From Blastocatellia bacterium (GTDB taxonomy: Bacteria; Acidobacteriota; Blastocatellia; UBA7656): DNA of 51,586 nucleotides. Where the stretch lies: contig JBASRM010000547.1 of the NCBI GenBank assembly GCA_049273835.1, forward strand, positions 1 through 51,586. The letters are read 5' to 3'. Below are positions 9,864-40,877 of this stretch, in pieces. Position 1 is the stretch's first letter. Every line of letters starts with the position of its first letter. Position numbers and translations under genes: made by a program. Below the pieces are notes generated by a model. It had not been told where the DNA came from. It ran no database searches and saw only the letters and a list, made by a program, of their open reading frames with translations.

Positions 9864-11858
9864 ATGCATTCAGTGGAAGTGGCTGCGTCGCCACCGAACA
9901 AGGAAGCCCATCAGGCGCTTCACCCTCCTGAGACAAAACCCAACCTGTCGACGGTCTGTCTGGCGGGCGCACCCAACGCGGGCAAGACCGCGCTGATGAA
10001 CGCGCTCACCGGCGGCAGTTTTCACACCGCAAACTACGCGGGCGTGACCGTGACGCTTTCACGCGGCAAGAGCAAAGCCGAATTTGGGCCGCCGGTGTTG
10101 CTCGTCGATCTGCCCGGAGTGCACAGCACATCGGCGGTTTCGCCGGAAGAGGAACTTTCCTGCCGGGTGATTGAAAACCGTCATCCCTCTGTAACACCTG
10201 ATGCCTTGATCGTGGCCGTCGACGCCACCCAGCTCGAACGACACCTTAAGTTTGCTTCATTCGTTGCGCGACAACAAAAACCGATGGTCATCGCGCTAAC
10301 CATGATGGACCTGCTCCCTCGAACGCAGCAGTCGGTCAACGTGCGAAAGCTCGAACGGGCGCTTGGAATTCCAGTCATCCCGGTTGACGGCCGCACCGGT
10401 TGGGGCGCTGCCGAGCTGATGAGTGTTCTTCAAAAAGCGTTAGCTAAACCGGTAACTCGAAGCGCACTTTCTGAATTGCCGGAGGAGCCGGTGTCTGCAT
10501 ACAAGCTCATCCGCGAACTACTGGAGAACAGCCAGGCCGTCAAAGATTCGAACCGGTTGGTGCTGGCTCGCGATTCATTCACTTCGAAAATCGACCGGAT
10601 CGTATTGCACCGTTTGCTCGGGTTTCCAATCTTTTTTGCGGTTCTCGTGGGACTATTCTCGTCGATCTTTTGGGTTGCACGCCCGTTTATGGATTTGATC
10701 GATTGGAGTTTTTCGCAAACCGGGAAGGGGTTGTTGGCTGTCTTGCCGGAGGGAGCGCTGTCTCACTTTCTTGCTGAAGGCGTCGTCGGTGGCGCCGGCG
10801 CCGTTGCCGTGTTTTTTCCGCAGATAGTAATTCTCTTCTGCTTAATGACGCTGCTGGAAGATTCAGGCTATCTTGCCCGCGGAGCTGCGATCGTCGACAG
10901 GCCGCTTTCATATCTCGGCTTGCACGGGCGATCTTTCGTGCCAATGCTTTCGGGGTTTGCGTGCGCCATTCCGGCGGTGCTCGCCGCGCGAACGATTCCC
11001 TCGCGTCGCGAGCGGCTGCTTACTATTTGGATATTGCCGTTGATGAGTTGCAGCGCAAGGCTGCCCGTGTATGCCCTCCTACTGGGCGCGCTCCTGCCGG
11101 GCGCCGCCTGGAAGGCTGGACTCGCGCTCGGCTTAATTTATGTCTTGAGTCTTTTGATAGGCGCGTTGGTAGCGGGTTTGATTAGCAGGTTGTTCCTGCG
11201 AAAGCACGCAGCTTCGCTGCTGGCGATGGAGATGCCGGTCTATAGAAGACCTCTCTTGAAACCGACGCTCAAAATGACTTGGTCGCGCTCGTCTGGGTAT
11301 CTCAAGCGCGCGGGAACGCCAATCGTGGTGATTTCGGCGTGCTTGTGGTTGTTGTCCAATTTCGGTCTCGGTTCGCATCAACCCGCAGCGGCTCGAGGTG
11401 AGCAATCGCGATTGGTTGCGGTCAGCGATCTGGATCACTCATTTGCTGCGGAGATTGGCCGGACTCTGGAACCCGCTCTGCGTCCAATGGGAGTCGATTG
11501 GCGAGTCGGTGTGGGCTTGATTTCGGCTTTTGCGGCCCGGGAGGTGTTCGTCAGCACCATGGCGATCGTCTTTCACGTAGCCGGCGACGAAGGCTCGCAA
11601 CAACAGGGTACCTTGCTCGATAGTATGCGCACGGCAACCTTTTTAGGATCCTCGCAACGAATCTTCACAACATCTACTATCATCGGTTTGATCGTCTTTT
11701 TCTTCTTCTCGCTGCAGTGCCTGTCGACGGTTGCAGTGGTGCGAAGCGAGACCAATTCCTGGCGTATCGCCGGGTTGCAACTTCTCTTTTATACCGGCAT
11801 CGGTTACGTGCTGTCAGCAACTGTGGTCGGGGGTCTCCGGCTGTTAGGGGTTGATTAG
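9864..11858 (+). CDS. feoB: ferrous iron transporter FeoB (G-domain plus polytopic membrane domain)
   Basis: G1 GAPNAGKTALMNALTG, DLPG, TMMD. Gate-motif-containing membrane domain with many TM helices. Confidence 0.92.
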   Translation: MHSVEVAASPPNKEAHQALHPPETKPNLSTVCLAGAPNAGKTALMNALTGGSFHTANYAGVTVTLSRGKSKAEFGPPVLLVDLPGVHSTSAVSPEEELSCRVIENRHPSVTPDALIVAVDATQLERHLKFASFVARQQKPMVIALTMMDLLPRTQQSVNVRKLERALGIPVIPVDGRTGWGAAELMSVLQKALAKPVTRSALSELPEEPVSAYKLIRELLENSQAVKDSNRLVLARDSFTSKIDRIVLHRLLGFPIFFAVLVGLFSSIFWVARPFMDLIDWSFSQTGKGLLAVLPEGALSHFLAEGVVGGAGAVAVFFPQIVILFCLMTLLEDSGYLARGAAIVDRPLSYLGLHGRSFVPMLSGFACAIPAVLAARTIPSRRERLLTIWILPLMSCSARLPVYALLLGALLPGAAWKAGLALGLIYVLSLLIGALVAGLISRLFLRKHAASLLAMEMPVYRRPLLKPTLKMTWSRSSGYLKRAGTPIVVISACLWLLSNFGLGSHQPAAARGEQSRLVAVSDLDHSFAAEIGRTLEPALRPMGVDWRVGVGLISAFAAREVFVSTMAIVFHVAGDEGSQQQGTLLDSMRTATFLGSSQRIFTTSTIIGLIVFFFFSLQCLSTVAVVRSETNSWRIAGLQLLFYTGIGYVLSATVVGGLRLLGVD

Positions 11859-12127: not shown

Positions 12128-12805
12128 ATGAAAGACCGCATCAAATGGATTCTAGTCGGACTCGGGTTCACGTTCGGACTTCAGGTCATAATCTCCATCA
12201 TGTTCACCGCGATAGCCTACAGCAGCAAGAGCAGCCAGGCGGATGTAGTATCGGACACAGCGGTGGCTGTTGCTTTTGGCGCGACGGTCGGTGCGTTCTT
12301 GATCGGCGGTTTCGTGGTCGGTTGGCTGACCGAAGACCTGCGGCTGGTTGATTCGCTTATCGTGGCCGTCGCAACGCTTGCGCTGACCCTGCTGGTCTAC
12401 ACGGCGCTGCCCTCGGGTAATCAGCCTCAATTCGTCAGCGGATTTCTACTCTCCCATTTGACTCGCGGGCTGGTGTTCAGTGTACTCGGGCTGGCGGCTG
12501 CGGCGATAGGAGCGTACTGGGGTTGGCACTTGAAAGTGCCTCAAGAAGGTGTGGTCGATAGAATCGCGCTGGTAGTCGGGTTGGTCGGAGCAGTGGTCGG
12601 CCCGTTTGTACTGCTGGCTCTTGGGGGCTCGAATAGCCCCGGCGCGCCAAACCTGCCGTGGTATTTTCTGGTGATCGTGATTGTCTTGGTGCTGGTGATC
12701 GTGGGAGTTGGCTTTGTCCTATTTACTCGGGAGTCACATTACGAGGATGAAATATCGATCAGCCCCGAACACCACAAAGATCAAGATCCAGCCACTACAA
12801 ACTGA
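12128..12805 (+). CDS. polytopic membrane protein of unknown function (~6 TM)
   Basis: 225 aa, hydrophobic throughout, acidic/polar tail. GGGAGG SD 7 nt upstream of the ATG. Confidence 0.6.
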   Translation: MKDRIKWILVGLGFTFGLQVIISIMFTAIAYSSKSSQADVVSDTAVAVAFGATVGAFLIGGFVVGWLTEDLRLVDSLIVAVATLALTLLVYTALPSGNQPQFVSGFLLSHLTRGLVFSVLGLAAAAIGAYWGWHLKVPQEGVVDRIALVVGLVGAVVGPFVLLALGGSNSPGAPNLPWYFLVIVIVLVLVIVGVGFVLFTRESHYEDEISISPEHHKDQDPATTN

Positions 12806-12894: not shown

Positions 12895-14853
12895 TTATGC
12901 TCCGTCATCGAGCCGAGGCTCTTTGATTACAGCACGAAGGTCGCGCGCCACCTCTGCGGCATCCTGGTATCGCTCGGCTACATCTTTCCTGAGTGTTCGT
13001 TCGATAATTGCGGCAAGCGCATCCGGCGCGTCCTTGCGATGCCTTTTTATCGGCGAAGGCGCTCGCTTCTTGATTGCTTCAATCGTTTGAAAATAAGTTT
13101 CGCCGTCAAAAGGCAGACGTCCGGTGGTCATCTCGTAGAGCACGACGCCCAGTGAGAAGATGTCGGCCACGTGTGTCACTTCGCCTCGCCCGGTAGCTTG
13201 TTCGGGCGACATATAGCTTACCGTTCCGAGGAGGACTCCTGATTCGGTAAGGCGTGCTTTGCCTGACGCGCGGGACAAAACGGGAAGCGGCTTCGCAAGG
13301 CCAAAGTCTAGTACTTTAACCTTACCTCTCGACGTGATCATAATGTTTGAAGACTTGATGTCTCGATGTACCACCCCGCGTTCATGCGCCTCAGCCAACG
13401 CTTCAGCTGACTGGATGCCGATGTCGAAGATCTCGCGCATTTCAAGCGGGCCGGCGTCAAGTCGCTCGGCGACAGTCTGACCCTCGACGTACTCCATTAC
13501 GATGTAAGGATTTCCGGACGCTTCGCCGATCTCGTGAATGGTGGCGATGTTGGGATGGTTGAGCTGTGAAGCCATTCGCGCTTCTCTCAAGAAGCGCTGC
13601 TTCATCGTCTCATCCTCCAGGTGCTTCGACGCCAATACCTTGATCGCCACCGTGCGTTGAAGCTCGGTATCATAGGATTCGAAGATCTCGCCCATCCCGC
13701 CCGCGCCAAGCGACCGTCGAATCTCGAATCGTCCGATGTGTCCCTCCGGTTCGATCAGCGGAGGCGCGGCCACTTTTTCAGTCTTGCCGTCGTGTACCGC
13801 CATCGCCGCCCGGTCCGTCTCCCGCAACTCGGTTGTAATGATGCGCGGCCGGGAGATCACCGATGAGAACAGCGTCGAAAAAATGCGCGGGCCCCGGTCG
13901 TCCTGGATAAAGTAGCCGGCGCGCTTGAGATCCTCGTAGATGTGCTCATGTTCCTTCTCTACGTGGCCTTGTTCGTTGAACTCCCGAATCGAGTGGCGGG
14001 GTCCCTCACTTAAGTGGTCCCAGATGAATCGAAACTGGCCCTTGGCTTCATCCAGAAACGTCGCTTCCACCTCTTCCCGATCGAGCTTGCTGTCGCTTTC
14101 AGCGAGATGATCAAAGTAAGCCGAACAAGCGATCTGCAAGAAGTAGGGGAAATATCCTGCAATTTCCATTATCCGGCGCCCGTAATTCTCCAGTGGCAGA
14201 CCCGCTTCCGACGACGGAACGACGATGAGCTCGAGAGCCTCCTTTCGCGTGAATGCGCGCAGGAACACGTTGGTAAAAATGTTGAAGAAAGGAGAGTCTG
14301 CGATGAGTTGTGTATGACAAAGTTCCTGCAGGTCGCGCGCCGAGCTCGTCACGTAAGCCACATCGTAATTGTTGGCGATCGATCGAAGAAATGAATAGAA
14401 CTCCAGATCAAATGCCCGGTTGGTGGTGATGGCGTCGAACTCGTCGAATAGGACAATCAGCTTGCGTCCATTGCGGCGAAAGTCTTCCAGCACCCCTCGG
14501 AGCGAGTCAAATGAGGGCTGGAGCTTTGCCAGCGATTTATCCCCGGTTTCCTTTGCGAGCAGCCCAAACAACTCCTTGAAAAACTCGGTGAGGGTCAGCC
14601 GGCGCTTTTGTTGAAGATCAATGAAGGCAAACGTGTAGGTCTCATGTTTGTCCAGGAAGCGTTCGCGAACCTCCGGCTGATTGATGAAGTAAAGCAGCGA
14701 CGATTTGCCGATGCGTCGTTCGCCCACCACTGAGATCGATTGCGGGCGCGACGCTCCAATTCGCGAGAAGATTTTCGACACCTCGCGCGCGCGACCGAAG
14801 AACTGCGCCGGGTCTTTGATTGCTACCCGATTGAGATAGGGATTGCGCGGCAT
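12895..14853 (-). CDS. fusion protein: N-terminal STAND-like P-loop ATPase (ATPase_2/AAA_35-like) plus C-terminal Hanks-type Ser/Thr protein kinase
   Basis: N-terminus NPYLNRVAIKDPAQFFGRAREV, Walker A GERRIGKSSL, Walker B LIVLFDEFD. C-terminus GAGGMGEIF, VAIKVL, HRDIKSSN, DFGLAK, SYMSPEQ. No TM segment seen. Confidence 0.85.
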   Translation of the reverse strand: MPRNPYLNRVAIKDPAQFFGRAREVSKIFSRIGASRPQSISVVGERRIGKSSLLYFINQPEVRERFLDKHETYTFAFIDLQQKRRLTLTEFFKELFGLLAKETGDKSLAKLQPSFDSLRGVLEDFRRNGRKLIVLFDEFDAITTNRAFDLEFYSFLRSIANNYDVAYVTSSARDLQELCHTQLIADSPFFNIFTNVFLRAFTRKEALELIVVPSSEAGLPLENYGRRIMEIAGYFPYFLQIACSAYFDHLAESDSKLDREEVEATFLDEAKGQFRFIWDHLSEGPRHSIREFNEQGHVEKEHEHIYEDLKRAGYFIQDDRGPRIFSTLFSSVISRPRIITTELRETDRAAMAVHDGKTEKVAAPPLIEPEGHIGRFEIRRSLGAGGMGEIFESYDTELQRTVAIKVLASKHLEDETMKQRFLREARMASQLNHPNIATIHEIGEASGNPYIVMEYVEGQTVAERLDAGPLEMREIFDIGIQSAEALAEAHERGVVHRDIKSSNIMITSRGKVKVLDFGLAKPLPVLSRASGKARLTESGVLLGTVSYMSPEQATGRGEVTHVADIFSLGVVLYEMTTGRLPFDGETYFQTIEAIKKRAPSPIKRHRKDAPDALAAIIERTLRKDVAERYQDAAEVARDLRAVIKEPRLDDGA

Positions 14854-14918
14854 TGGTCAGCACCTGTGTAACGCGGACCTCACAAGCAGATTCCGCGGCG
14901 TTGCGAAACGAACTGATT

Positions 14919-17900
14919 CTAAAGCGTGCGCACTTCTTTCACCACCTGCCAGATTGAATGCGAGCGGCGGATCCACAATCGCAGTAAATCGATCTTAAAC
15001 CTGAATCCATCGGTGGTGTCTTTCTCCAACAGCTCGCGGCGGAACATCTCTTCAAGCGTCAGTCTTATGGTGTTCTCCGAAAGGTTGACCGGGTAATCGC
15101 TGGCCCTCACCGCCGAGCGCAATTCACCGGCCGTCGCGTATCCGGTGCCGTCCGCAAGAACTTCTCCCAGTAGTGACAGCACCAGCTTCTCGTCGTCCGA
15201 AAGCGCGTCCCAGGTATAGATCATTTGCGGAAGCGGGTTGTCTACGATTTCCGTGATTACCCGGCCCAAATCGGCGACCGTTACCCAGTTCTGCCGGTGC
15301 TCGTTCAAGTGGTCAACGACGTTTTGACAGATGACCTGCGTGTAAAATGGCTGACCCGCAGTCAACCGGTAGATTACGTCCAACACCCCCCGCCCATACA
15401 CGACTCGGCCCTGTACCGGATCGGTGATCAACCGGACGGTGTCTTTCTCCGACAAGAAGCCGACCTTGCGAAACAGCGATCGTCTCAGCAACTCGCGCCA
15501 GTATTTTCTGTCTCGCTCCTCGAGCCTCCGCGAGCCCGTGAAGATCAACGCAAGTCGTTCCTTGTTATCCATCAGGCCCGCCAAAAAGGTAAACAGTTCA
15601 TGGGAGAGCTTGCCCTCGTCTACTTTACCTTCGAGCAACTCATACTCGTCCATGAGGATGAGCAGCGTCCGATCGCCTAGCGAACGCAACACGTCATCGA
15701 GAAAGTCCAAAAACATCGGGTACGGATTTCGGGCGTCGAATGAAGGTACGGATATGGCCTGCGACTGCGCCAGAGATGATTGCCTTGGTCCGCCGGATGG
15801 CAGGACGCCTACGGCCACCGCGCCGGAAGGGCCGCTCGATTCAAGCTCATGAAGCGCGCGGCTGTTTGCTCGCCCGACGGCTTCGGCGATCAAACGGGAT
15901 ATCCGCGCGAAGAACTCGGAGTCGGACGCAATCACCATCTCTTGAAGATCGACAAACACCGGTATGAAGCGCGCGCCCAATCGTCCGCCCGCCACTTGAT
16001 ACAGAATCGAGCTCTTGCCCACGCGACGCTCACCGCAAAAAACTATCACCACTCCCTGACTTGTCCCCTCCAGTTTCGTGCGCACGTATCGGAAGTCGTC
16101 CTCCCGTCCAAAGAACATCTTTTCCGTGCGGATAGGGTTGCCCACAATGAAGGGGTTCGGTTCGACTGGAACATAGGTTCGGAGTTCCCTGGGAAGGACA
16201 TATTCGCGATCGCCGAGCCGGCGAGCGGCGAAAGCGGCGACCAGCGCCAATCCGATGGCTGCGATTGCCAGCGCGTAGAACCACCAGGTCTTCCAGAACG
16301 GTGAGCCAACTCGCACCGACAGCGTAGCCGCCGGGCCGTTCGCGCCGTACAAATCCCGGTTCAACGCCATAAGCTCGAAAGTGTGCGTTCCTTCGTCCAG
16401 GTCAAGTCGGGACACGTCCCGCTCGGCTCCCTGTTGGACTGGTAAGACTTCCCAACGGCCGCTCTCTGCACCCGAGTTGATGCGATAGAGGTAGCGCGGC
16501 TGACCGCTCATGCTTGCAGCAGAGAAACGGAAAGTAAGCCGGTGGCGGCCAAAGGACACATCATACGATCCCGACTCAGATACGGGCTGAGTGCGGCCAT
16601 CCACTTCAAGCGAGACCTCACCCGGAGGCGAGACGCGGACCGGGATGTGCCGTACCGCGCCCTTGTTGGTTGCTATCCAGATATGATCCTGCAAGTCTTG
16701 CGTTATCAAATTGATGCGGCTACCGGTCAGCGCTTGAGCTTCACCAGAATAGACCGTGGACAGAATATGCCCGCCGAACCTGCAGAATTTCTTGACCTGA
16801 CCCTCATCCGTCCCGGTCCACAGATACCCGTCCCGGTCGACGAACATCGTGCTTGTAGGTTCAACCTCAAACGTCTCAAATGTGGATCCGTCGTATGCCT
16901 GAATTCCTGCTCTGCTGGCTACCAATAATCGGTCATTGAATCGAACCACCCATCGCGTATCATTGTCGGCAAGACCGCGCGCCGCATCGATCAAGCCCGA
17001 TTCACCCGTAGCCAAATCCAGCCTGACTACTCCGCGGGCCGTCGAAAACCACAGGCGCCCATCCGTATCTTCCAAAACGTGTCTTACGTCGTAGCCGGCG
17101 AGCGCGGGCAAATTCTGCAACTGGCCCTCTCGATACACAGATGCGCCCCGCGTCGTCGCAAACACGATGGCCGAGCCGTCAGCGATCGCCCTCACCCACT
17201 GGACGTTATTTGACGCGAGCCCGCTGCCTTCGTTGAACTGAGTGAGAGTTTCTCCTGTCCAACGCAGCGCGCCCTGCTCGGTGGCAAACCACGCAGAGCC
17301 GGTTCGATCGACCGCAACCGCCTGGACGCTGATCCCGGCGCGGAACCCTTCGACTGGAACAAAGCGCTCGCCTTCGAGCCGCGACACGCCGCCTGGAGTC
17401 AAAAACCACAAACCACTCTGCCCGCGCGTGCCTGGTGTAAGCGCGATCGCGTGTACGTCGTTGTCGGCAAGACCGCGGCTGGTTGTGAAATTCACGAAGC
17501 TGTAGAGATCCGAACTGATCGCCCCGTTGTCGCTTGCAAACCAGAGGTGGCCTTCGCGGCCGGTGAAGATAGCGCTGATGCGATCGCGCTCCAGGAAGTT
17601 GACACGCTGAGACTCGCGCCGCAGTGCGTCGTAGATGACCACTCCCCCCGAGTCGAGGGCAAACCACATTCGGCTGCCCTGGTCCTGACCTATCGTGCGA
17701 ACTATCGCGTCAACAGAGCTGCCGGGGGTGAGTTGGGTTCCCACACTCACCCTGCGAACGCTGCCGCCGTCGATTAACATCAGGCCCCGCGCTGTCGCAA
17801 GCCATACCTTTCCCGTACCGTCCACAAATACCGCGCGAGCATCGATCACCGGTTCCCGGCGTTGTGCTGGGTTCTTAGTCTCCTGCGACTCAAGCCATTG

Positions 17901-19100
17901 TTCGAGAGATCTCAATCGATCGCCTTCAAAAACGGATACACAGCCTGCGGCCGCGATCCAGATGCGTCCAATCTGATCCTGGGCGACGGCTCTTACGTCA
18001 GTTAGCGGAACCTCCTCAGGGCTTGATACAGGGATCATCGTTTGGCCGTCGAACCGAAACAACCCGGCCGCGGCGGCAACCCAAACGACCCCGGTTGAAT
18101 CAACAAAGACCTGTCGAGGGTCGTCCACCTGAAGCGGGGCGGCGGCTTCACCACCTCGCTTGGTGATTCGCCTCAGGGTCTTGGCAGTCGCGAGCCACAT
18201 GGTCCCGAGTCGATCTTCGGCGATCGATCGAATATCTTCGCCGGCTAATTGCTCGAACGCGGATCCTGTTGCTCCTGACGACTTAAACTCTGATCCGTTG
18301 AATCGCGCGACACCCTTGTCGGTGCCAAACCACAGCCAGCCCTCGCTGTCCTGGAACGCTGCCTGAACATTCTTTGAGGGAAGGTTCGGTACGGTGTAAC
18401 GCGAAACCGACTTTTCATTGATTGGAATTACGGGAGCGACCAAAAGCTGAAGCGGGAACTCGGTGGTGATTCCGGCGGAAATGAAGACATCGTTACGGTA
18501 TTCGTCGTAGCCTCGAAGCGTTGCGCCGAGCTGATAAGACCCGGGCGCTAGCCTGCCAAAGTATGCGTCGCCGTAGGCATCAGTGCCGCTGCGAGCTGCA
18601 ACCGCGCCGACCGCGGCTCGATCCTTCGCATAGAGGCTGACTGTCACGCCGGAAAGCGGCTGGTTAGCAGCATCCAACACGGCGACGTGCAGCGACGACG
18701 GGGCAAGCTTGATCGGCGGGGCGGCAAAGGTTTCATCCGGCCGCAGCGTTATGTTCACAACCTCTTTCTTGAATCGCGCGGCTTCAACTGTGATGCGATA
18801 CGGCGCGGCCCTAAGGTTGCGAAACTCGAATCTGCCGTCCGCCTGGGTGCTGGTGGACCGTGACAGATCTCCCGAACCGAGAGTTACCCTGGCGTTTGCC
18901 AAAGGCACGCCGCGATCGTCTTGAATGACCCCGATTATGGCGCCCGCTTCGTTTTGAGCACTGCTATGCCGTGCGCTGAGGACTCTTGAGCCACCCACCA
19001 GGAGAATGATTGCGATGAATAGAACGAACGAGCTGCGCCTTCCGACGGTGCGCCCAGAGAATTGGTTGGTTGGGAAGCGCGTAGACACTTCTAAAAACAT
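14919..19100 (-). CDS. transmembrane sensor: 2x CarboxypepD_reg-like, double Reg_prop beta-propeller, Y_Y_Y-like domain, TM helix, cytoplasmic STAND-like P-loop ATPase with helical/wHTH-like tail
   Basis: About 14 blades of the type FQDSEGWLWFGTDKGVARF / VAQDQIGRIWIAAAGCVSVF / VLEDTDGRLWFSTARGVVRL. PRYLYRINSGAESGRWEVL (Y_Y_Y-like). TM WWFYALAIAAIGLALVAAFAA (about 16218-16286). NPFIVGNPIRTEKMFFGRED, Walker A GERRVGKSSI (about 16008-16037), Walker B LLILMDEYE. Confidence 0.85.
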   Translation of the reverse strand: MFLEVSTRFPTNQFSGRTVGRRSSFVLFIAIILLVGGSRVLSARHSSAQNEAGAIIGVIQDDRGVPLANARVTLGSGDLSRSTSTQADGRFEFRNLRAAPYRITVEAARFKKEVVNITLRPDETFAAPPIKLAPSSLHVAVLDAANQPLSGVTVSLYAKDRAAVGAVAARSGTDAYGDAYFGRLAPGSYQLGATLRGYDEYRNDVFISAGITTEFPLQLLVAPVIPINEKSVSRYTVPNLPSKNVQAAFQDSEGWLWFGTDKGVARFNGSEFKSSGATGSAFEQLAGEDIRSIAEDRLGTMWLATAKTLRRITKRGGEAAAPLQVDDPRQVFVDSTGVVWVAAAAGLFRFDGQTMIPVSSPEEVPLTDVRAVAQDQIGRIWIAAAGCVSVFEGDRLRSLEQWLESQETKNPAQRREPVIDARAVFVDGTGKVWLATARGLMLIDGGSVRRVSVGTQLTPGSSVDAIVRTIGQDQGSRMWFALDSGGVVIYDALRRESQRVNFLERDRISAIFTGREGHLWFASDNGAISSDLYSFVNFTTSRGLADNDVHAIALTPGTRGQSGLWFLTPGGVSRLEGERFVPVEGFRAGISVQAVAVDRTGSAWFATEQGALRWTGETLTQFNEGSGLASNNVQWVRAIADGSAIVFATTRGASVYREGQLQNLPALAGYDVRHVLEDTDGRLWFSTARGVVRLDLATGESGLIDAARGLADNDTRWVVRFNDRLLVASRAGIQAYDGSTFETFEVEPTSTMFVDRDGYLWTGTDEGQVKKFCRFGGHILSTVYSGEAQALTGSRINLITQDLQDHIWIATNKGAVRHIPVRVSPPGEVSLEVDGRTQPVSESGSYDVSFGRHRLTFRFSAASMSGQPRYLYRINSGAESGRWEVLPVQQGAERDVSRLDLDEGTHTFELMALNRDLYGANGPAATLSVRVGSPFWKTWWFYALAIAAIGLALVAAFAARRLGDREYVLPRELRTYVPVEPNPFIVGNPIRTEKMFFGREDDFRYVRTKLEGTSQGVVIVFCGERRVGKSSILYQVAGGRLGARFIPVFVDLQEMVIASDSEFFARISRLIAEAVGRANSRALHELESSGPSGAVAVGVLPSGGPRQSSLAQSQAISVPSFDARNPYPMFLDFLDDVLRSLGDRTLLILMDEYELLEGKVDEGKLSHELFTFLAGLMDNKERLALIFTGSRRLEERDRKYWRELLRRSLFRKVGFLSEKDTVRLITDPVQGRVVYGRGVLDVIYRLTAGQPFYTQVICQNVVDHLNEHRQNWVTVADLGRVITEIVDNPLPQMIYTWDALSDDEKLVLSLLGEVLADGTGYATAGELRSAVRASDYPVNLSENTIRLTLEEMFRRELLEKDTTDGFRFKIDLLRLWIRRSHSIWQVVKEVRTL

Positions 19101-19251
19101 TTAATGAGGAAGCCGGGCTACTCGCAAGGTCGAGTATACACGCGGTAGAAGAAGGCTGCCAAGAAACGAGAGTTGCAACCCGACGCCCGGTAGAGAGAAT
19201 GGGTTTTACCAGAGTTCGATGAATGCGAAGCTGAGTGCCTCTAACTCTTGC

Positions 19252-20424: not shown

Positions 20425-20453
20425 TTGACCTCGGCGCAGCTAGGTGCGATATT
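20425..20453 (+). promoter_or_regulatory. candidate sigma70 promoter for the metallophosphoesterase gene
   Basis: TTGACC (20425-20430), 17-nt spacer, GATATT (20448-20453), about 40 nt upstream of the ATG at 20494. Confidence 0.4.
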
Positions 20454-20493
20454 TGTCGCCTCAACCAACCTGGCCCGCGAGGGAGGAAAGCTC

Positions 20494-22953
20494 ATGCCGA
20501 CTGCCACGGGATCACAGCCGCCTGATTTATATCCGAAACCTGATCGCGAACGAGACTTCAAAGGGCCGGTGAGGTGGCTCCTGGGACCGCAGCTCATAGC
20601 CAGCCTCAAGTGGCTCGCCCTGTACACGGCCTTCAAAGGCAAGCTCGATCCGCGAGACTGGATGCGTGCGCGGCCGATTCACCTGGACGGGCCGGACAGA
20701 TCAAACAATGCGGAGGACGTCTCGGCTGATGAGTACTGGTTTGATTACTTCGCCGATACCGGCGATGGGCAGTTGGCGACATACAGCATTGCGTATCTGT
20801 GTTTGAGGAATCTTTGGGTCGCAACGGACCCTCGCGTCGATTCGCCGATCGACATGGGCAAAACATCAGACTCCGGAATGAAGCTCCCGCGTGGGGAATT
20901 CCTGTTCGTAGGAGGTGACACAGCTTACCATCAGGCCGATTACCCGACGCTGGGGCTGCGGTTTCAGGCGCCGTTCAAATGGGCTTACGAAGATCTCAGG
21001 AAAGAGGCGGCAATCTCGGATGACGAGCCACGGAGACCCTTGTTTGGCATTCCCGGAAATCATGACTACTACGATTTGATTGACGGCTTCGGCCGCCAGT
21101 TCGCGGAGCCTACCAGCGAGGAGGGGCAGAAGAACCGAGAGGGGCTGCGGCCGCAGTTGTCAATTCCTGGCTTCAAGCGTAGTCAAACGGCAAGCTATCT
21201 GGCACTCAAGCTCCCGTTCGATTGGTGGCTCTGGGGACTCGACAATGAGGCTGGCAGACTGGACATACGTCAGCAGGAGTTTTTCAAAGGGCTCAGTTCC
21301 AAGAAACCCGACAAACTCATCGTCGCCACGCCGGAGCCAGGCACAGTCTTCGGCCGTTGTGCTCGCTCGGGTGATAAAGTTTCGAAGGCATTCGCGGATC
21401 TGAATCTCGAACAGCCTTTCTTATTGGATCTGAAACTGCCTCCTGGAACCTGCAGACTGGATCTGTCCGGCGACGCGCATCTCTACGCGCGCTATTGGGG
21501 ACCTTCGGCAGCGAGTCCCGGTGAGGAGCCCGCCGCGGACAATTACGCTTCCGTCGTGTCGGGTCTCGGCGGCGCGTTCCTCCACTCGTCGGATACCGAT
21601 GTGGGCGAGATCAAAGCGCAAACACGCTATCCACCACGGGAGGTCTCGCGAGTCGAAACCGCTCGCAGGTTGTTCAGCCCGGTAAATATCATCTCGGGAG
21701 GATACGTGGCGATATTCGGCGCTGTCGCCGCGGCTATTGTCTTTTTTGGCGCAACCGTTCCGGTGAGCAGCAGCGTGGTCGTTGAGAAAGCATTCGCAGC
21801 GTTGAATCTGACTCTTCCGCCCCTTTCGAGGCCATCGGGGCTTTTCCCCGACATCACCTGGCCCCAGCACAACCTTGCTCAAGCGGCTAACTTTTCAATG
21901 CTCGAGATTGCCCTGCGAGTGGTCTTGCTCATCGGGTCTGTAATACTTGTGGCCGTCAGCGTTCAGCAATCAAAGTCGATGATAAACTCCTCTCGAAAGG
22001 GCGAAGACGTATTTCGGCGCTATCGTATTCGGATCGCGATTCTGCTTACTGCCGGTTTGGCGTGTCTGGTGTTTGGCGTCTGGCGGCTGGTTGAGTACCG
22101 AGACAACCTGTCACCCTTTCAATGCAGCCTTCTCATTCTGTTTGCGCTGCTCTGGAGCGCGAACGCCTTAGCGGCGAGCGTCGTCTATTCGGAATGGCTT
22201 TTCAAACGCGCTTATACCGAGATCATCAAGTGGTGGCACTATTGGCCGGTTATGTTACTCGTCGTTCTCGGGGCTGCGTTTCCAGTCCTCGGCTTCGGCT
22301 TCTTCGGGAGGTATCCGGCGGAGTACGTGTTCGTCGATGTTCTGTTTGCATTGGTGGTTTTGGGCGGTGCAGCCGCTTTGATTATTGGAGCATTCGTTGC
22401 CGGGGGCGCACATCAGGGACCCGCCGGAAAAGCGGGCTTCTTTCTGCTCGGAGTATGGCACGCATTGTTGCAGGTAGCGGTTCCCTTCCTGATGGCGAGA
22501 TACGGTGACTGGCGCTCGTGGCTTGGGGGACTCGCCGCAGTCTTAGTTTTTTGGCTCGCGGGGAACTGGCTGGTAGCCAAGCTCAGATTCAGACAGAGTC
22601 TTTTGATAGTCTGGCTGCTCTATGGTGTGGTTTTAATTGGACTGCCCTTGTATCTACGAGGAGCATCAGCCCCGTCCTCTGAATCCTGGATCGCGCGGAT
22701 GTTGGTCGCGGTTCTGCTTGGGGCGCTGATGAGTTGTGTAACGCTTGGCTGGTATTTTGCGGTCTCGCTTGCGTTCAACGGGCACAACGAACAAGCAGGC
22801 GGCGCCGCGCGAATAGAACGCTTCAAGGAGTTCATGCGAATTCGCCTTACGGCTAGCGGTCTCACTGCCTACGTGATAGGAATCGACAAACCCGAGATGA
22901 ACGGAAAGAACCTGCGCCCCAGAATCATCGATGTGTTTGATCTGAAGGTTTGA
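20494..22953 (+). CDS. calcineurin-like metallophosphoesterase fused to a large polytopic membrane domain
   Basis: Motifs FADTGDG, FVGGDTAYHQADY, GIPGNHDYYD, LSGDAHLYARY. The C-terminal ~430 aa has about 10 hydrophobic helices. ATG at 20494 is preceded by a GGAGG SD (the track start at 20425 is TTG). Confidence 0.8.
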   Translation: MPTATGSQPPDLYPKPDRERDFKGPVRWLLGPQLIASLKWLALYTAFKGKLDPRDWMRARPIHLDGPDRSNNAEDVSADEYWFDYFADTGDGQLATYSIAYLCLRNLWVATDPRVDSPIDMGKTSDSGMKLPRGEFLFVGGDTAYHQADYPTLGLRFQAPFKWAYEDLRKEAAISDDEPRRPLFGIPGNHDYYDLIDGFGRQFAEPTSEEGQKNREGLRPQLSIPGFKRSQTASYLALKLPFDWWLWGLDNEAGRLDIRQQEFFKGLSSKKPDKLIVATPEPGTVFGRCARSGDKVSKAFADLNLEQPFLLDLKLPPGTCRLDLSGDAHLYARYWGPSAASPGEEPAADNYASVVSGLGGAFLHSSDTDVGEIKAQTRYPPREVSRVETARRLFSPVNIISGGYVAIFGAVAAAIVFFGATVPVSSSVVVEKAFAALNLTLPPLSRPSGLFPDITWPQHNLAQAANFSMLEIALRVVLLIGSVILVAVSVQQSKSMINSSRKGEDVFRRYRIRIAILLTAGLACLVFGVWRLVEYRDNLSPFQCSLLILFALLWSANALAASVVYSEWLFKRAYTEIIKWWHYWPVMLLVVLGAAFPVLGFGFFGRYPAEYVFVDVLFALVVLGGAAALIIGAFVAGGAHQGPAGKAGFFLLGVWHALLQVAVPFLMARYGDWRSWLGGLAAVLVFWLAGNWLVAKLRFRQSLLIVWLLYGVVLIGLPLYLRGASAPSSESWIARMLVAVLLGALMSCVTLGWYFAVSLAFNGHNEQAGGAARIERFKEFMRIRLTASGLTAYVIGIDKPEMNGKNLRPRIIDVFDLKV

Positions 22954-30055: not shown

Positions 30056-33000
30056 CTAAAAGCCGAATTTCAATCCAAACTGAATCTCCCTTGCGCGGCG
30101 CGTCGAGAACACTTGCCCAAACTGCGGATTTGAACTCTGCTTTACCAGGTTCTCCACGCTATTGAATGCCGGATCGGTAGGCAGCAGATTCGGCACAGTC
30201 TGGAAAATGTCGTTGATCGTGGTGTTGTTGAACACGTTGAAGAACTCAGCCCGAAATTGAATTCGATACCTCTCCGCGACATGCCAGTTCTTGGCGATGT
30301 TCAGATCGGTGCCGCGGAAGGTCGGGAACCGAAACGGCGAGCGGCCTGACGTCCCGATCTCGCCCACCCCGGTCGGTATGAACGCCAGCGGGTTGATGTA
30401 GTACGGCACCGTGGTTCCGGGGACTCCGACTGGCACGTTCTCGAACGGATCGCTCACCTGATTTGGCCGAGTGCCTCGCGGACCGGGTCCGGTTGCCTGA
30501 ACCACGCGGTTCAACGGCAACCCCGTTTGCACGGTGGTTATCCCTGAGATCTGCCAACCCCCGAAGATCTGATTAACCACGGGTCTCGCGAGGAAGCCAT
30601 CCTTGGGATAGGGTACTTCGTAGACGTAACTGGCTTTGAAGACGTGCGTGCGGTCGAATCGCGCGACCGCTCGTTCGATCGCGAAGTTGTTGCGCACCTG
30701 CGGAATATCTATGGTGTCCCTATCGTTTGTCGAATCGGTCAGGTTCTTCGACCACGTGTAAGACAACTGGGCGGACAACCCTTTGACGTTCTGAATTCTC
30801 AACGCGCTGATCAGCGCGTGATATCGAAAGGTCGCCGTAGTCTGCCGGTCGGTGATCGTCGTGTAGCCCCTGAACGGACGTGCAAGGTTTATGCAGTTGT
30901 TCGGGTTGTTCGAAGCGTTTAGCGCTGGATCGCAACCCGCAACGCCCTTCGCCGCCGCCAGGATTTCCTGAGGCGTCGGCGCGTTGATGTCAACCGGCCG
31001 AGTTTGATGGTTCCCGCCAGATCCCAAATATCCGATCTCAAACGCCGTCGCCTTGCCGATCTGCCGCTGAATGGTAAGGTTCCACTGCTGAGTGATCGGC
31101 GTTATGAATGGGCTGGTGGTCGTTATGAGCGCACGCGGCGCCAGGGTGCCTGGCGGCGCTCCGGCTGCCGGATTGTCATAAGTGATCGGCGCGGCGATAG
31201 TACCGGTTAGACTCACCGTGTTCACAAAGGGCGGATTGGTGAATGTGTTCTCCTCCAGTGTGCCGCCTAAGACCTGATCGTAGTAGATACCGTACCCGCC
31301 TCGGATAACCATCTGGTCTCGCCCGCCGGTAAGCCTTGCAACGAGCCCGCTACCGGCTGAAGGACTCCAGGCGAATCCAACCCGCGGGCCGAAGTTGTTC
31401 TTGTCCAACTGTTGAATCCTTCTGCCGAACGGGGAATTCCTGTTGGCAATCACGATCCCGTTCAGAACATCCCCTACTCCTTTCACGAGCTGGGTACCGG
31501 TGGCATTCGCAAAAGGCGGTGCGTTGGCTGCCACGTAGTTTTCAGGAAAAAATGCAGTAAGCACGTCGTCGGCGTCAACCGGAGTGCGAAACAGTTGATA
31601 TCGCAACCCGTAGTCGAGCTGAAGATTCGGTTTTGCCTTCCAGGTGTCCTGCGCGTAGAACTCGGTTCTTCCAAACCGGAGTTGATTTGTAACGTCGACC
31701 TCACTTTCGGAGTATGCGCTTGCTCGGCCGAGCAGAAAATCGGCTAACGGTCTTCCGCTTCCCGACACGCCGCTCCTAGCAGTCTGCGAACCGTTGAAGC
31801 TGAATGCCCCCTGGGTTGCATTCGCCGCGTTTTCATTTTTTCGCTCCCAGCTCATGTCTACGCCGAACTTCATCGTGTGCGGACCTCGAACCCAGGTGAG
31901 ATTGTCCTTGGGATTGAAGTTCTTGTAGTGGATCCCGATGATCTGCCCGGAGCCAAGCGACGAGAAGCCGGTGATGTTGATAGTGGGGGGTAAGTCGGAG
32001 TTGTTTTGCGGGAACAATTCCTTGCTCGGTATGGTTACATTTTGTTTTGTCCATTGCCCCACAAGGTCGTCGGTGATGTCGTTGCCGGAATAGGCGAATG
32101 TCGCTTCGTTTACGATGCTCGTTCCAAAAGTGCTGATAAGCGAGACCGAAAAGACCTGACCCGGGACGTTGGTCTTGGTAGTGGCGATGTTTGGAATCTG
32201 AAACGTCCTGCCCTGAAACAAACCGCCCGGCTCCTGAGTGAAGCTCAGATCGTGAGTGTACCGGCCGGTGAGCTGATGCATGGAGCTAATGCCATGGTCA
32301 ATCCGCAGAGTCTCCTGCCGTGTGTTGTTGATCCCAGGAGCAAGCGCCAGTATGCGATTTGGATCTATTCCAGGGGTCGTCGAAGGTAACGTCGGCTCGG
32401 GGAAGAGTTTCAGTATCGCCAATGCCGTCGGATCCAATCTGTTTGCGGGAATCTGTCTGTCGGTGAACTCATTGCCAGTTACTGGATCGAACAGCCTTCC
32501 TGTTGCCTGCGAAAAATCGCCGCGACGCTCGCGAAGTGTCGGTACCGTTACGAAGTTCTCGGCGGGCTGCCGGATGATACGCCTCCATTCCTGCGAGAAG
32601 AAGAAAAACGTTTTGTCGTGCCCACGCGAGTAGATGCGCGGTATCCAAATCGGGCCGCTGAATGTGTAGCCGAAATTGTTGTAGCGGAGTACGGACCGCG
32701 GGGTGCGTTCTTCGCCGCACGTTTTTCCAATCGGCGCCACCTCGCCGAGATCGCAAAAGCGCCCGGCTGCGTTGCCCAGAAAGCTGTTGGCGTTGAACGC
32801 GTCATTGCGCAGGAACTCATAAAGGCCCCCGTGAAATTCGCGTCCGCCTCCGCGGGTGATCACGTTTACAACTCCGCCCGATGCCCGGCCGAATTCGGCG
32901 GTCGGGACAGATGTGATTACTTTGAACTCCTGGATCGAATCGACTGTGGGCATGGAAAGCAAAGTGATGTTCGACCCCACATCGACGTTCGCAACTCCAT

Positions 33001-33589
33001 CGACAAGGTAGTTGGTCGAGTTGCGACGGTTTCCGCCGATCAGGATGGTGGTTAGATTGGTCAGGCCGATTCCAGCTTCTGCCGTTTCATCCGTGGTAAC
33101 TCCGGGAACCAGCGTGACCAGCTGGAGGAAGCTGCGATTGTTGAGCGGTATCTCGACCACTTTCCGATTCTCGATCACATCGCCGACCGTCGGCGAAGAT
33201 TGTACAACCGGGGCATCGGCGGTGACCGTCACCTGCTCGCTGAGCGCACCCGGCTCGAGCTGGATGTTGATCGTTTTTCGGTCGTTTACCAACATCTCAA
33301 CGCTTTTATTGACATACTCCTTGAAGCCCTGCACCTTGACCGAAATATCATAGATACCGGGCGGGATTGAGGGCAGCGTGTAGTATCCGTCTTCGGCTGA
33401 CTTGGTCTTGCGCTCCTCCCGGGTGCTGGCGCTGGTAATTGTGATATCGGCGTCGCCGATTGCAGCCCCGGCAGTGTCGGTTATCTGGCCGGTAATAGTA
33501 GCCGTTGTTTCCTGCGCGATCCCGTTTGTGGCAGAGATTTGAAACAACAGCGCCGAGGCCAGAACGATTGCAGATAGTCGATGCCTCAT
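30056..33589 (-). CDS. TonB-dependent outer-membrane receptor with N-terminal CarboxypepD_reg domain
   Basis: Signal peptide. ITGQITDTAGAAIGDADITI...GIYDISVKVQGFKEY (CarboxypepD_reg). Plug region, long beta-barrel, terminal ...FGLKFGF. AGGAGG SD. Confidence 0.9.
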   Translation of the reverse strand: MRHRLSAIVLASALLFQISATNGIAQETTATITGQITDTAGAAIGDADITITSASTREERKTKSAEDGYYTLPSIPPGIYDISVKVQGFKEYVNKSVEMLVNDRKTINIQLEPGALSEQVTVTADAPVVQSSPTVGDVIENRKVVEIPLNNRSFLQLVTLVPGVTTDETAEAGIGLTNLTTILIGGNRRNSTNYLVDGVANVDVGSNITLLSMPTVDSIQEFKVITSVPTAEFGRASGGVVNVITRGGGREFHGGLYEFLRNDAFNANSFLGNAAGRFCDLGEVAPIGKTCGEERTPRSVLRYNNFGYTFSGPIWIPRIYSRGHDKTFFFFSQEWRRIIRQPAENFVTVPTLRERRGDFSQATGRLFDPVTGNEFTDRQIPANRLDPTALAILKLFPEPTLPSTTPGIDPNRILALAPGINNTRQETLRIDHGISSMHQLTGRYTHDLSFTQEPGGLFQGRTFQIPNIATTKTNVPGQVFSVSLISTFGTSIVNEATFAYSGNDITDDLVGQWTKQNVTIPSKELFPQNNSDLPPTINITGFSSLGSGQIIGIHYKNFNPKDNLTWVRGPHTMKFGVDMSWERKNENAANATQGAFSFNGSQTARSGVSGSGRPLADFLLGRASAYSESEVDVTNQLRFGRTEFYAQDTWKAKPNLQLDYGLRYQLFRTPVDADDVLTAFFPENYVAANAPPFANATGTQLVKGVGDVLNGIVIANRNSPFGRRIQQLDKNNFGPRVGFAWSPSAGSGLVARLTGGRDQMVIRGGYGIYYDQVLGGTLEENTFTNPPFVNTVSLTGTIAAPITYDNPAAGAPPGTLAPRALITTTSPFITPITQQWNLTIQRQIGKATAFEIGYLGSGGNHQTRPVDINAPTPQEILAAAKGVAGCDPALNASNNPNNCINLARPFRGYTTITDRQTTATFRYHALISALRIQNVKGLSAQLSYTWSKNLTDSTNDRDTIDIPQVRNNFAIERAVARFDRTHVFKASYVYEVPYPKDGFLARPVVNQIFGGWQISGITTVQTGLPLNRVVQATGPGPRGTRPNQVSDPFENVPVGVPGTTVPYYINPLAFIPTGVGEIGTSGRSPFRFPTFRGTDLNIAKNWHVAERYRIQFRAEFFNVFNNTTINDIFQTVPNLLPTDPAFNSVENLVKQSSNPQFGQVFSTRRAREIQFGLKFGF

Positions 33590-33750
33590 TGTTGAGTACC
33601 TCCTAGAGTAATGCGGAAACCTCGGTCGATGGCGTTCGACCAGGCAAAAAGATTGCGTTTCCCACTGGGTTTCGTAGGGGACGCCCCACTTTTAAAGGAA
33701 TCTGCGTCTCTTTGGTGCGGCTTCGTGCCGTGAGTCGCACTCAAAAACAA

Positions 33751-36318: not shown

Positions 36319-36367
36319 GTTGATAACTCTTCCAAACCCGGAGACTCGCAATCCATCTTAGCCGTCT

Positions 36368-37843: not shown

Positions 37844-37921
37844 GTCTCAAGCGTTGGGCAGGCTTGAATAGTAGCATAGACGCCAGCGCAAGTCTGGTTA
37901 TTCCCGGACGCATGCTGAAGC

Positions 37922-38935: not shown

Positions 38936-38944
38936 AAAAAAGCT

Positions 38945-40027: not shown

Positions 40028-40219
40028 CTCAACCTTCTTGGCCTTTACTCTTTTATAGCCCTCGTCGAAGCGATTGTAAATCAATTTATTATTATAGTTA
40101 CGATAACAGATCGTTGTTCCACACAGGTCACAGGCGGGTAACAACCCACAAATCAAATCAGGAATGTAGTGTCTATTCTTAATTTATTGATCAGTGAATC
40201 TATGACGAACAGGAGAGTT

Positions 40220-40675
40220 ATGACCCGACGGATTGCTTTGGTTTTCCTGGCCATTAGCTGTTTCTCGACTAGCTTCAGGGCTGCGGCCGGTCCCAGAAGC
40301 CCAATCCTGGACGACCAGCTAACCCCGTATTCCTCTATCGCACCGCCCTTCATCACGCCCGCCAAAGATGTGTTTGTCGTGCGTGAGGGAGACTCAATCG
40401 TCCTGACCGTGACGGCCACATGCCTGCTCGAGGATGAGAGCGAGACCCAGTTTGAGTTGGCGGGTTCCGCGCCGGGTTTTATTCACCTGTCGGCCCCGTA
40501 TCGCAACGAGCAACGGCGCACCGAGTATGCGGAAGGATTGGGTGTGGCGTTGATCTCGCCCCAGATCGGAGATGCCGGAAAATATGTTGTGAGTATTCTA
40601 GTCAGATCGTGCAACGGGAAAGTGGAGCGGGTGATCACATTTAAGGTGCGCGTCAAATCGGCTCTACTGACCTAA
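40220..40675 (+). CDS. small secreted protein, possibly Ig-like fold, unknown function
   Basis: AGGAGA SD before the ATG at 40220. Signal peptide MTRRIALVFLAISCFSTSFRAAAG. Beta-rich remainder. Confidence 0.5.
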   Translation: MTRRIALVFLAISCFSTSFRAAAGPRSPILDDQLTPYSSIAPPFITPAKDVFVVREGDSIVLTVTATCLLEDESETQFELAGSAPGFIHLSAPYRNEQRRTEYAEGLGVALISPQIGDAGKYVVSILVRSCNGKVERVITFKVRVKSALLT

Positions 40676-40877
40676 GAAGTCAGACCCTAGTTCAAGCCTA
40701 AGCTTACGCTTTGCGTTAAACACAGGCGTCCCCAGGATGGCATCACAAGTCACCACCGGTCGTGTCGAAATCTGGAGTCCAAGACCAGGCTGCGTTGACG
40801 GCATCGGCTCTCGACTTTGCCGCTCGAGCTCGAATCGCTATCATGACCATTCGCGTATCGACGAGCGTCCCGCTCCT

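Follow-up and report, generated by a model that had tools for sequence, protein, structure and literature searches.

Accounts of transmembrane signaling in bacteria usually center on histidine kinases, chemoreceptors, ECF (extracytoplasmic function) anti-sigma factors, membrane Ser/Thr kinases and cyclases. In the hybrid two-component systems (HTCS) of Bacteroides, the sensors BT4663, BT3049 and BT4673 (PDB 4a2l/4a2m, 3v9f and 3ott/3va6, respectively) combine a double β-propeller, a Y_Y_Y domain and one transmembrane (TM) helix. Here we analyze a gene on the minus strand (14919..19100) of a 51,586-nucleotide stretch, hereafter the window, from a Blastocatellia bacterium (Acidobacteriota; GenBank assembly GCA_049273835.1, contig JBASRM010000547.1). 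The encoded protein shares the double propeller, the Y_Y_Y domain and the single TM helix of the Bacteroides sensors, but in place of their HisKA, HATPase_c, receiver and HTH_AraC domains it carries an NTPase that resembles STAND (signal transduction ATPases that contain numerous domains) and origin recognition complex (ORC) proteins. It also differs in having two additional N-terminal CarboxypepD_reg domains, and its gene lies outside any polysaccharide-utilization locus. This protein has the ectodomain features of an HTCS and lacks the cytoplasmic features that define one.

The cytoplasmic half of the receptor, and the NTPase-kinase encoded by the adjacent gene, recall three other kinds of system. 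Classical STAND proteins, including Apaf-1, MalT and the resistosomes of plant NLR (nucleotide-binding leucine-rich repeat) proteins, share the P-loop base, helical lid and winged helix. By analogy with them, a ligand-licensed, nucleotide-dependent oligomerization that gathers effector domains is likely here as well. In contrast to these proteins, the sensor of the receptor is N-terminal, extracellular and placed across a TM helix, there is no cytosolic C-terminal repeat array, the effector resides on a second polypeptide, and the NTPase is structurally nearer to Orc1/Cdc6 than to NB-ARC. The second related protein is PknK of Mycobacterium tuberculosis, which joins a Ser/Thr kinase to a STAND-class NTPase, as does the partner protein of the present locus. 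The ATPase of PknK is MalT-like with C-terminal repeats, and PknK is not known to have a dedicated membrane receptor partner. The NTPase of the partner described here is instead of the nSTAND2 type, and the order of the two domains varies by clade, either NTPase-kinase or kinase-NTPase. The third precedent is a set of nSTAND2 operons with two adjacent genes, each coding for a STAND NTPase with a winged helix, in which one of the two NTPases lacks activity and bears a fusion to TPR plus HEPN or GT4 effectors (Kaur, Iyer, Burroughs & Aravind 2021, eLife 10:e70394, PMC8195603). Those systems are soluble, mobile and mostly proteobacterial. The present locus likewise consists of two adjacent genes for STAND NTPases with winged helices, but both NTPases keep their motifs, one is membrane-anchored behind a sensor, the other is joined to a kinase, and the locus is syntenic and chromosomal rather than mobile.

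A single-pass receptor with an HTCS-type ectodomain and an nSTAND2-like switch

The receptor gene is a single uninterrupted open reading frame (ORF) of 1393 amino acids (aa) that starts with ATG. Intact orthologous ORFs of 1290–1550 aa occur in approximately 57 species-level genomes, nearly all of them Blastocatellia, which rules out that this ORF is an assembly artefact. A Kyte-Doolittle hydropathy scan detected exactly two hydrophobic segments, aa 25–43 and aa 941–959. Because positive charges precede the first of them (RRSS) and follow the second (ARRLGDRE), the propellers are expected outside the cytoplasm, as originally predicted. This pattern places aa 44–940 outside and aa 960–1393 inside the cytoplasm. 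Together with the domain assignments described below, it shows that the gene product is a single-pass membrane receptor with an HTCS-homologous ectodomain and an nSTAND2-like cytoplasmic switch.

The relationship of the ectodomain to the Bacteroides sensors is supported by sequence and by structure prediction. Pfam recognized Reg_prop repeats on the protein with an E-value of 9e-31, and a phmmer search against PDB sequences matched the periplasmic domain of BT3049 (3v9f) at 9e-26 and BT4663 (4a2l) at 1.5e-18, with a weak colinear alignment that reaches into the Y_Y_Y domain of both proteins. An AlphaFold2 (AF2) model of aa 226–940, built from 40 homologues (predicted local distance difference test, pLDDT, 90.4; predicted template modeling score, pTM, 0.88), contains 56 strands that form 14 blades, after which comes an Ig-like domain of seven strands. 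The top Foldseek matches of this model are BT4663, BT3049 and BT4673, all of them full-length and with E-values of 4.5e-34 to 1e-30, and the next match, PorZ, is weaker by 17 orders of magnitude. The Pfam hidden Markov model (HMM) for Y_Y_Y gave no match on the isolated segment that precedes the TM helix, even at E ≤ 10. The same HMM does match relatives with the same overall architecture (P0264, P0336 and the receptor of locus L085; E-values of 1e-11 to 4e-14). Since the structure model and these relatives resolve the missing match, the description of the modeled ectodomain as a double propeller plus Y_Y_Y is correct. The second of the two CarboxypepD_reg domains (aa 136–193) is also matched by SdrD_B, Big_1 and SpaA in Pfam. 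That this ectodomain senses glycans, as in Bacteroides, would be an extrapolation by analogy. Within the window no polysaccharide-utilization genes adjoin the receptor gene and its neighbors are housekeeping genes. A polysaccharide-utilization context was rejected on these grounds, and a cluster that resembles N-acetylmuramic acid (MurNAc) recycling genes lies more than 11 kb away with no evident link.

The cytoplasmic part, a module of 430 aa, contains Walker A (GERRVGKS, aa 1023–1030) and Walker B (LLILMDE, aa 1146–1152) sequences, and its motifs for predicted ATP binding and hydrolysis are intact. Pfam says little more. A scan of the full protein returned only weak, sub-threshold P-loop matches in the C-terminal third (ATPase_2, AAA_22, AAA_14), and the isolated region aa 971–1393, scanned at E ≤ 10, matched solely ATPase_2, AAA_14, AAA_22 and, in traces, nSTAND1. 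An AF2 model from 39 homologues (pLDDT 89.4, pTM 0.83) covers the whole cytoplasmic region and consists of an α/β P-loop base, a helical lid, a winged helix with three helices and a hairpin, and two further helices. Among PDB structures, Foldseek placed archaeal and eukaryotic Orc1/Cdc6 proteins at the top, with full-length alignments that take in their winged-helix domains; RFC, RuvB, proteasome ATPases and plant NLR resistosomes (NRC3 and wheat resistosome chains) followed at lower rank. As modeled, this region has the three tiers of an AAA+/STAND switch. The chain stops 25 residues past the winged helix, and in relatives with a C-terminal ectodomain the two conserved C-terminal helices directly precede the TM helix. 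The sole disordered part of the model is an insert in the ATPase base. This insert measures 47–64 aa in close Blastocatellia orthologues, where it is poorly conserved, and 13–18 aa in other clades. Its Ser content suggested a conserved phospho-acceptor loop, an idea that was rejected as a general feature because the insert is lineage-specific and poorly conserved.

HisKA, HATPase_c, receiver, HTH_AraC and GGDEF domains were absent from the isolated cytoplasmic region in Pfam and NCBIfam scans at E ≤ 10. Cryptic versions of these domains (HisKA, HATPase_c, REC, AraC or GGDEF) in aa 960–1393 can be rejected, since no profile matches and the AF2 model leaves no room for them. The original prediction, made from the sequence alone, had described an HTCS-type periplasmic sensor with approximately 14 Reg_prop repeats, a Y_Y_Y domain and a single TM helix, preceded by two CarboxypepD_reg domains and followed by a Walker A/B NTPase and a helical region ending in a possible winged helix, with none of the above output domains. 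The profile searches, the two AF2 models and the Foldseek matches bear out this layout in every element (Table 1).

Table 1. Positions of the predicted features of the receptor gene and of the partner gene in the window
Feature	Position	Strand	Description and basis
Promoter-like site TTGGCA-18-TATACT	19133..19162	-	Consensus match only, 10/12; 33 nt upstream of the start codon
N-terminal hydrophobic segment (signal peptide or signal anchor)	18972..19028	-	aa 25-43; Kyte-Doolittle scan
CarboxypepD_reg domain 1	18729..18938	-	aa 55-124; Pfam PF13620, E 1.2e-24, two stretches
CarboxypepD_reg / prealbumin-like domain 2	18522..18695	-	aa ~136-193; second PF13620 stretch
Two seven-bladed Reg_prop β-propellers	16647..18407	-	aa ~232-818, 56 strands; Pfam, PDB, AF2, Foldseek
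Y_Y_Y-type Ig-like domain	16308..16622	-	aa ~827-931, motif RYLYRINSG..W; AF2, 3v9f alignment, Foldseek
Single TM helix	16224..16280	-	aa 941-959, then ARRLGDRE; hydropathy
AAA+/STAND P-loop base	15465..16160	-	NPFIVGNPI..FFGRE, Walker A/B, FTGS sensor-1-like motif, invariant Arg aa 1196
Disordered Ala/Gly/Ser-rich insert in the ATPase base	15726..15869	-	aa ~1078-1125; pLDDT <50
Helical lid domain	15207..15449	-	aa ~1218-1298, conserved RLTAGQPFYTQVICQ; alignment and AF2
Winged-helix domain	14997..15197	-	aa ~1302-1368; AF2 topology, Orc1/Cdc6 alignments
Two conserved C-terminal helices	14928..14990	-	DLLRLWIRRSHSIWQVVKE; alignment and AF2
Intergenic spacer, 65 nt	14854..14918	-	Upstream of the partner ATG, a ribosome-binding-site-like AGGTG at a distance of 6 nt (ctgacc)
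Partner nSTAND2 NTPase module	13819..14853	-	aa 1-345; Walker A GERRIGKSS, Walker B LIVLFDEFD; PF20702 E 8e-64
Partner Hanks-type Ser/Thr kinase domain, tail and stop codon	12895..13725	-	Pfam Pkinase E 6e-49

The partner gene and conservation of the pair

A second gene (12895..14853) follows 65 bp downstream on the same strand. It encodes a soluble protein of 652 aa with no TM helix, in which an N-terminal nSTAND2 module precedes a kinase domain. A motif scan found the kinase motifs GxGxxG, VAIK, HRDIKSSN, DFG and SPE intact. The NTPases of the two proteins share 25% identity over approximately 340 aa (BLASTP, E = 2e-16), and hhalign relates the family of the receptor module to the partner nSTAND2 family with 99.6% probability (E = 5e-25, 278 columns). 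Both families retain Walker A, Walker B and the sensor-like motifs. Judged by these alignments, the two NTPases are paralogues and both look catalytically competent. Unlike the receptor itself, a few close homologues (P0018 and P0042) match the nSTAND2 family PF20702; the receptor ATPase is best treated as a divergent sister family of nSTAND2. No terminator-like site is present in the 65-nt spacer, and the receptor gene has the region's best promoter-like site immediately upstream of it. Receptor and partner genes form a predicted two-gene operon; that they adjoin, that their NTPases are homologous and that they are conserved as a pair is shown.

For a survey of this pairing, one genome per species was scanned for relatives of the ATPase module. 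It turned up 212 relatives; 80 loci were retained. An nSTAND2-kinase gene lies downstream on the same strand at 59 loci, 9 loci are truncated and 12 are unlinked, so that the pair is present at 59 of the 71 informative loci, usually with a gap of 6–150 bp between receptor and partner. Among close Blastocatellia genomes this adjacency is weak evidence because the flanking genes are syntenic there too, and the argument from pairing therefore rests on distant clades. In Glassbacteria, in Gemmatimonadales and in a bin labeled "archaeon", the receptor is a TPR-TM-ATPase protein of 900–920 aa. Its partner is a Zn-ribbon-kinase-nSTAND2 protein with reversed domain order, and a ThuA-like gene lies between the two. 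In metagenomic relatives of the PEGA type (ATPase-TM-PEGA) and of a 651-aa type, receptor and partner genes overlap, by 4 and 14 bp, respectively.

Several of these loci show further regularities. In the Glassbacteria, the Gemmatimonadales and the "archaeon" bin (L072–L074, L077, L079 and L080; for example L073, 3253-14051) the pair sits in a conserved row of six genes, which code in order for an FG-GAP/dockerin protein, a lipoprotein-like ORF of 194 aa, a FadL/TodX-type outer-membrane channel, the TPR-TM-ATPase receptor, a secreted ThuA-like protein and the Zn-ribbon-kinase-nSTAND2 protein. At locus L082 (4036-9979) two genes for NMT1-type periplasmic binding proteins lie directly upstream of the pair. 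The receptor of this locus belongs to the 651-aa class, with two TM helices and no ectodomain recognized by Pfam, and the layout hints that a separate binding protein delivers the ligand. A subclade of Reg_prop receptor-ATPases (L050, L051, L053, L061, L065 and L066) has no nSTAND2 partner within 10 kb. Its members are full-length receptors with 55–64% identity to the present protein in the module and approximately 30% in the ectodomain; they may be paralogues that either work alone or rely in common on a partner gene at another site.

The module family, its outputs and the genomic surroundings

The ATPase module is highly conserved and recognizable by the motifs NPYIVGNPI..MFFGRE, GERRxGKxSILYQ, DEYE, FTGS, GQPFYTQVICQ, NPLPQMIY.W and DL.R.WIRR.HS.W. 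A search of 1.84 billion clusters at 50% identity with a profile of the module, which also kept some flanking columns, gave 2582 representatives with E ≤ 1e-30. They are spread over Acidobacteriota, Gemmatimonadota, Calditrichota, Glassbacteria, Poribacteria and further phyla. Of the best 150 representatives, 91 show the order module-TM-ectodomain and approximately 44 the order ectodomain-TM-module; in both layouts no more than a few tens of residues separate the TM helix from the module. The ectodomains comprise Reg_prop/Y_Y_Y, in some cases with Laminin_G or Ig-like domains, as well as PEGA/CarboxypepD_reg, TPR and PF14827 domains. No curated Pfam or NCBIfam family covers the module, and its members are named in their sources as "hypothetical", "AAA+ ATPase superfamily predicted ATPase" or "two-component regulator propeller domain-containing protein".

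The outputs vary on the side of the partner. Relatives of the partner-type nSTAND2 module at 41–50% identity carry Pkinase, SpoIIE-type PP2C, Guanylate_cyc or TIR domains. A partner of the cyclase type is linked to a Reg_prop receptor at L085 (1497-8750) and L086 (699-7952), where three consecutive genes code for a receptor, a cyclase-like nSTAND2 protein and a PP2C phosphatase that binds cyclic nucleotide monophosphates (cNMP). This receptor is a Reg_prop-Y_Y_Y protein of 1435 aa with a module 45% identical to the one described here (E = 3e-112). The C-terminal region of its nSTAND2 neighbor bears the JGI name "class 3 adenylate cyclase", which Pfam does not confirm there and does confirm in P0419. 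At L085 another nSTAND2 gene lies further upstream. Because relatives of the partner exchange the kinase for a PP2C, cyclase or TIR domain, the receptor ATPase is probably a coupling switch and not the final output. A metagenomic representative (P0381, 1214 aa) even unites both sides on one soluble chain, with Pkinase, FHA and TIR_2 domains fused to an ATPase module of the receptor type. This fusion links the module to kinase signaling and, via TIR, possibly to immunity.

Exchange of outputs is also common on the side of the ectodomain. Relatives of the ectodomain with 23–30% identity are connected to HisKA/HATPase, HisKA_3, PP2C, sigma54-type AAA+, Pkinase, GGDEF, cyclase, CHAT or nSTAND1 domains, and in P0178 and P0233 Reg_prop/Y_Y_Y sensors are fused straight to Pkinase. 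These sensors belong to the same ectodomain family and are likewise single-pass proteins, which shows that the Reg_prop/Y_Y_Y sensor is a portable input module. They differ in that their outputs are fused directly and belong to named families. The receptor ATPase is not a sigma54 activator, as neither PF00158 (Sigma54_activat) nor PF02954 (HTH_8) matches the protein. In contrast to the sensors with direct fusions, the receptor appears from its domain content to need a second protein for catalytic output.

These comparisons change what is to be considered new. The original prediction, an ATPase in place of a kinase output, holds insofar as the standard output domains are absent; it does not hold for the ATPase as the terminal output, which it probably is not, since a kinase is encoded by the neighboring gene. 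Neither this nSTAND2-kinase gene nor its recurrent pairing with the receptor had been noted. The novelty had been placed in the swap of the output domain. Because related ectodomains carry many outputs, such a swap alone is not novel. What is new is the unnamed family of membrane receptor-NTPases and its conserved pairing with NTPase-output proteins. No description of the receptor-NTPase/NTPase-kinase pair was found in the searchable literature, the coverage of which is incomplete, and neither PMC7159879 nor PMC13581612 mentions the pair.

Other genes of the window deserve a brief description. The plus strand at 12128-12805 codes for a protein of 225 aa with several TM segments and no Pfam match, convergent with the kinase gene. 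This protein and FeoB (9864-11858) hold their position in most Blastocatellia loci (43–80% identity), which may reflect a functional link or plain synteny. On the other side of the pair, an ORF of 842 aa (20425-22953, plus strand) has no Pfam match at E ≤ 1e-5. By eye, its N-terminal half contains motifs similar to calcineurin-type metallophosphoesterases (GGDTAYH and GNHDYYD); the other half, toward the C terminus, is highly hydrophobic and probably polytopic. L071, the closest locus, is the only one that conserves this ORF (76% identity). The MurNAc/peptidoglycan-recycling-like cluster mentioned above spans 30056-41792. It includes a protein with CarboxypepD_reg and an outer membrane protein β-barrel of 838 positions, a fusion of β-lactamase and NamZ (exo-β-N-acetylmuramidase), an SSF symporter, a BadF/BcrA-type ATPase and a SIS-domain protein, with a divergent LysR regulator alongside. 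Finally, an ORF of 742 aa on the minus strand (46326-48554) has no Pfam match at E ≤ 1e-5.

Possible modes of signaling

How may a receptor with an NTPase module communicate with a soluble NTPase-kinase? We surmise that a ligand outside the cell would alter the packing of the juxtamembrane NTPase modules of the receptor. The BT4663 ectodomain works as a dimer. Altered packing would then license a nucleotide-dependent oligomerization, in which the receptor module would co-assemble NTPase-to-NTPase with the partner. This co-assembly would concentrate kinase domains at the membrane, where trans-autophosphorylation could activate them to phosphorylate downstream targets. The paired NTPase modules would thereby serve as the transmitter/receiver interface of a two-protein system in which sensor and output domains are interchangeable. 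The precedents for this mechanism are drawn from induced-proximity signaling by STAND and NLR proteins, and from the toroidal hetero-multimer that Kaur et al. 2021 (PMC8195603) predict for operons in which two genes encode paired STAND NTPases. We give such a co-assembly of receptor-NTPase and partner NTPase-kinase slightly better than an even chance.

In its favor are the homology and intact motifs of the two NTPases, the operon-like layout, the pairing conserved across receptors with different ectodomains, the fusions P0381, P0178 and P0233, the variable outputs on partner-type modules, and the TM helix next to the module in the family representatives. Some observations weigh against it. The HMM of PF20702 does not match the receptor module, so the two NTPases have diverged considerably. 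No linked partner was found at 12 of the 71 informative loci within the available 2.5–10 kb. The genes for FeoB and for the 225-aa membrane protein that flank the pair are also syntenic among close Blastocatellia. Finally, the nSTAND2-PP2C and nSTAND2-TIR genes that were examined have no adjoining receptor.

The most serious alternative keeps the functional link and dispenses with the hetero-oligomer. The receptor would homo-oligomerize, and the kinase would either phosphorylate it in a feedback or be recruited by way of a different surface; the partner NTPase would be an independent autoinhibitory switch, as in kinase-STAND fusions like PknK. A conserved operon indeed shows a functional link and not a mode of protein contact, and with complete catalytic motifs in both NTPases each of them could cycle alone. 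This account leaves unexplained why the partner always bears a paralogue of the receptor module, whatever its output, and the sole Ser-rich loop that the receptor module could offer to a kinase is the poorly conserved, lineage-specific insert. We regard this arrangement as unlikely, though it is the best of the alternatives to co-assembly.

The STAND ancestry of the module also raises the idea of an NLR/STAND-type conflict or defense system, in which the fast-evolving ectodomain would detect, at the cell surface, an invader or a molecule of a competitor, and the kinase (in some relatives TIR) would be an effector that arrests or kills the cell. Paired nSTAND2 operons have been predicted to be counter-invader systems (PMC8195603), TIR domains are found in the fusion P0381 and as the partner output in P0464, and the kinase domain of the partner matches PADLOC kinase models (PD-T4-6 and mad6). 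The ectodomain also diverges faster than the module, with 48–72% against 70–86% identity among Blastocatellia and 28–35% against 55–64% in the next tier. Yet these kinase matches are generic, and neither the receptor nor either of the NTPases has a PADLOC match. The pair resides in a conserved chromosomal neighborhood of housekeeping genes (aminoacyl-tRNA synthetase, CCA/poly(A) polymerase, FeoB and RecG), related loci are found on contigs of up to 7.9 Mb, and no defense or mobile-element genes adjoin. The commonest outputs, kinase, PP2C and cyclase (in one case followed by a cNMP-binding phosphatase), are ordinary signaling domains. A known defense system was rejected, as PADLOC-DB v2 is empty for the receptor and the NTPases, and the NCBIfam model DS8_antiphage scored insignificantly (13 bits against a cut-off of 790). 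We consider a defense function improbable.

The protein could also act outward instead of relaying a signal inward. An inside-out ATPase would use ATP to assemble, remodel or anchor envelope-associated ectodomains, and the kinase would merely regulate it. Many members of the family have PEGA, CarboxypepD_reg or Ig-like ectodomains, which are often structural or wall-associated, and mechanical work is a common task of AAA+ modules; the structural matches of the module include RuvB, RFC and proteasome ATPases. Its closest structural relatives, however, are switch- or initiator-type proteins with a winged helix (Orc1/Cdc6 and NLRs) rather than pore-loop unfoldases, one TM helix is ill suited to transmitting mechanical work, and the ectodomain is a ligand-binding sensor of the BT4663 type. 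Such a role is very doubtful.

The least probable alternative, to which we attach hardly any weight, is a membrane-tethered one-component transcription factor, the C-terminal winged helix of which would bind DNA once the ATPase oligomerizes, in the manner of MalT-like STAND activators or ToxR-like tethered regulators. In its favor, the winged helix is present and conserved, and those of Orc1/Cdc6 do bind DNA. Against it, winged helix and terminal helices lie within approximately 15–30 residues of the TM helix in most members, no Pfam HTH family was detected on the cytoplasmic region in a scan at E ≤ 10, the conserved kinase partner would be unexplained, and in STAND proteins, as established for NB-ARC and NACHT, the winged helix belongs to the nucleotide-controlled switch and does not read DNA.

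If co-assembly of paired NTPases is the mechanism at this locus, it may extend beyond it. On a broader reading, which we put forward tentatively and consider possible rather than probable, paired nSTAND2-type modules would constitute a general, hitherto unrecognized modular scheme of bacterial signaling with a logic comparable to that of two-component systems, but with nucleotide-dependent hetero-oligomerization instead of phosphotransfer. A sensor chosen from propeller/Y_Y_Y, TPR, PEGA, Ig-like, Laminin_G or Cache-like domains would be followed by a TM helix and an NTPase "transmitter", and a paralogous NTPase "receiver" would carry a kinase, PP2C phosphatase, nucleotide cyclase or TIR output.

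The module defines thousands of unnamed proteins and indicates an uncharacterized, widespread route for transmembrane signals. If the NTPases do co-assemble, this route would be a membrane-spanning counterpart of the "induced proximity" mechanism of apoptosomes and NLR proteins, used for ordinary environmental sensing. It would then provide a defined system in which to study the control of a STAND switch by one TM helix, and a handle on what the abundant and poorly studied Acidobacteria of soil perceive.

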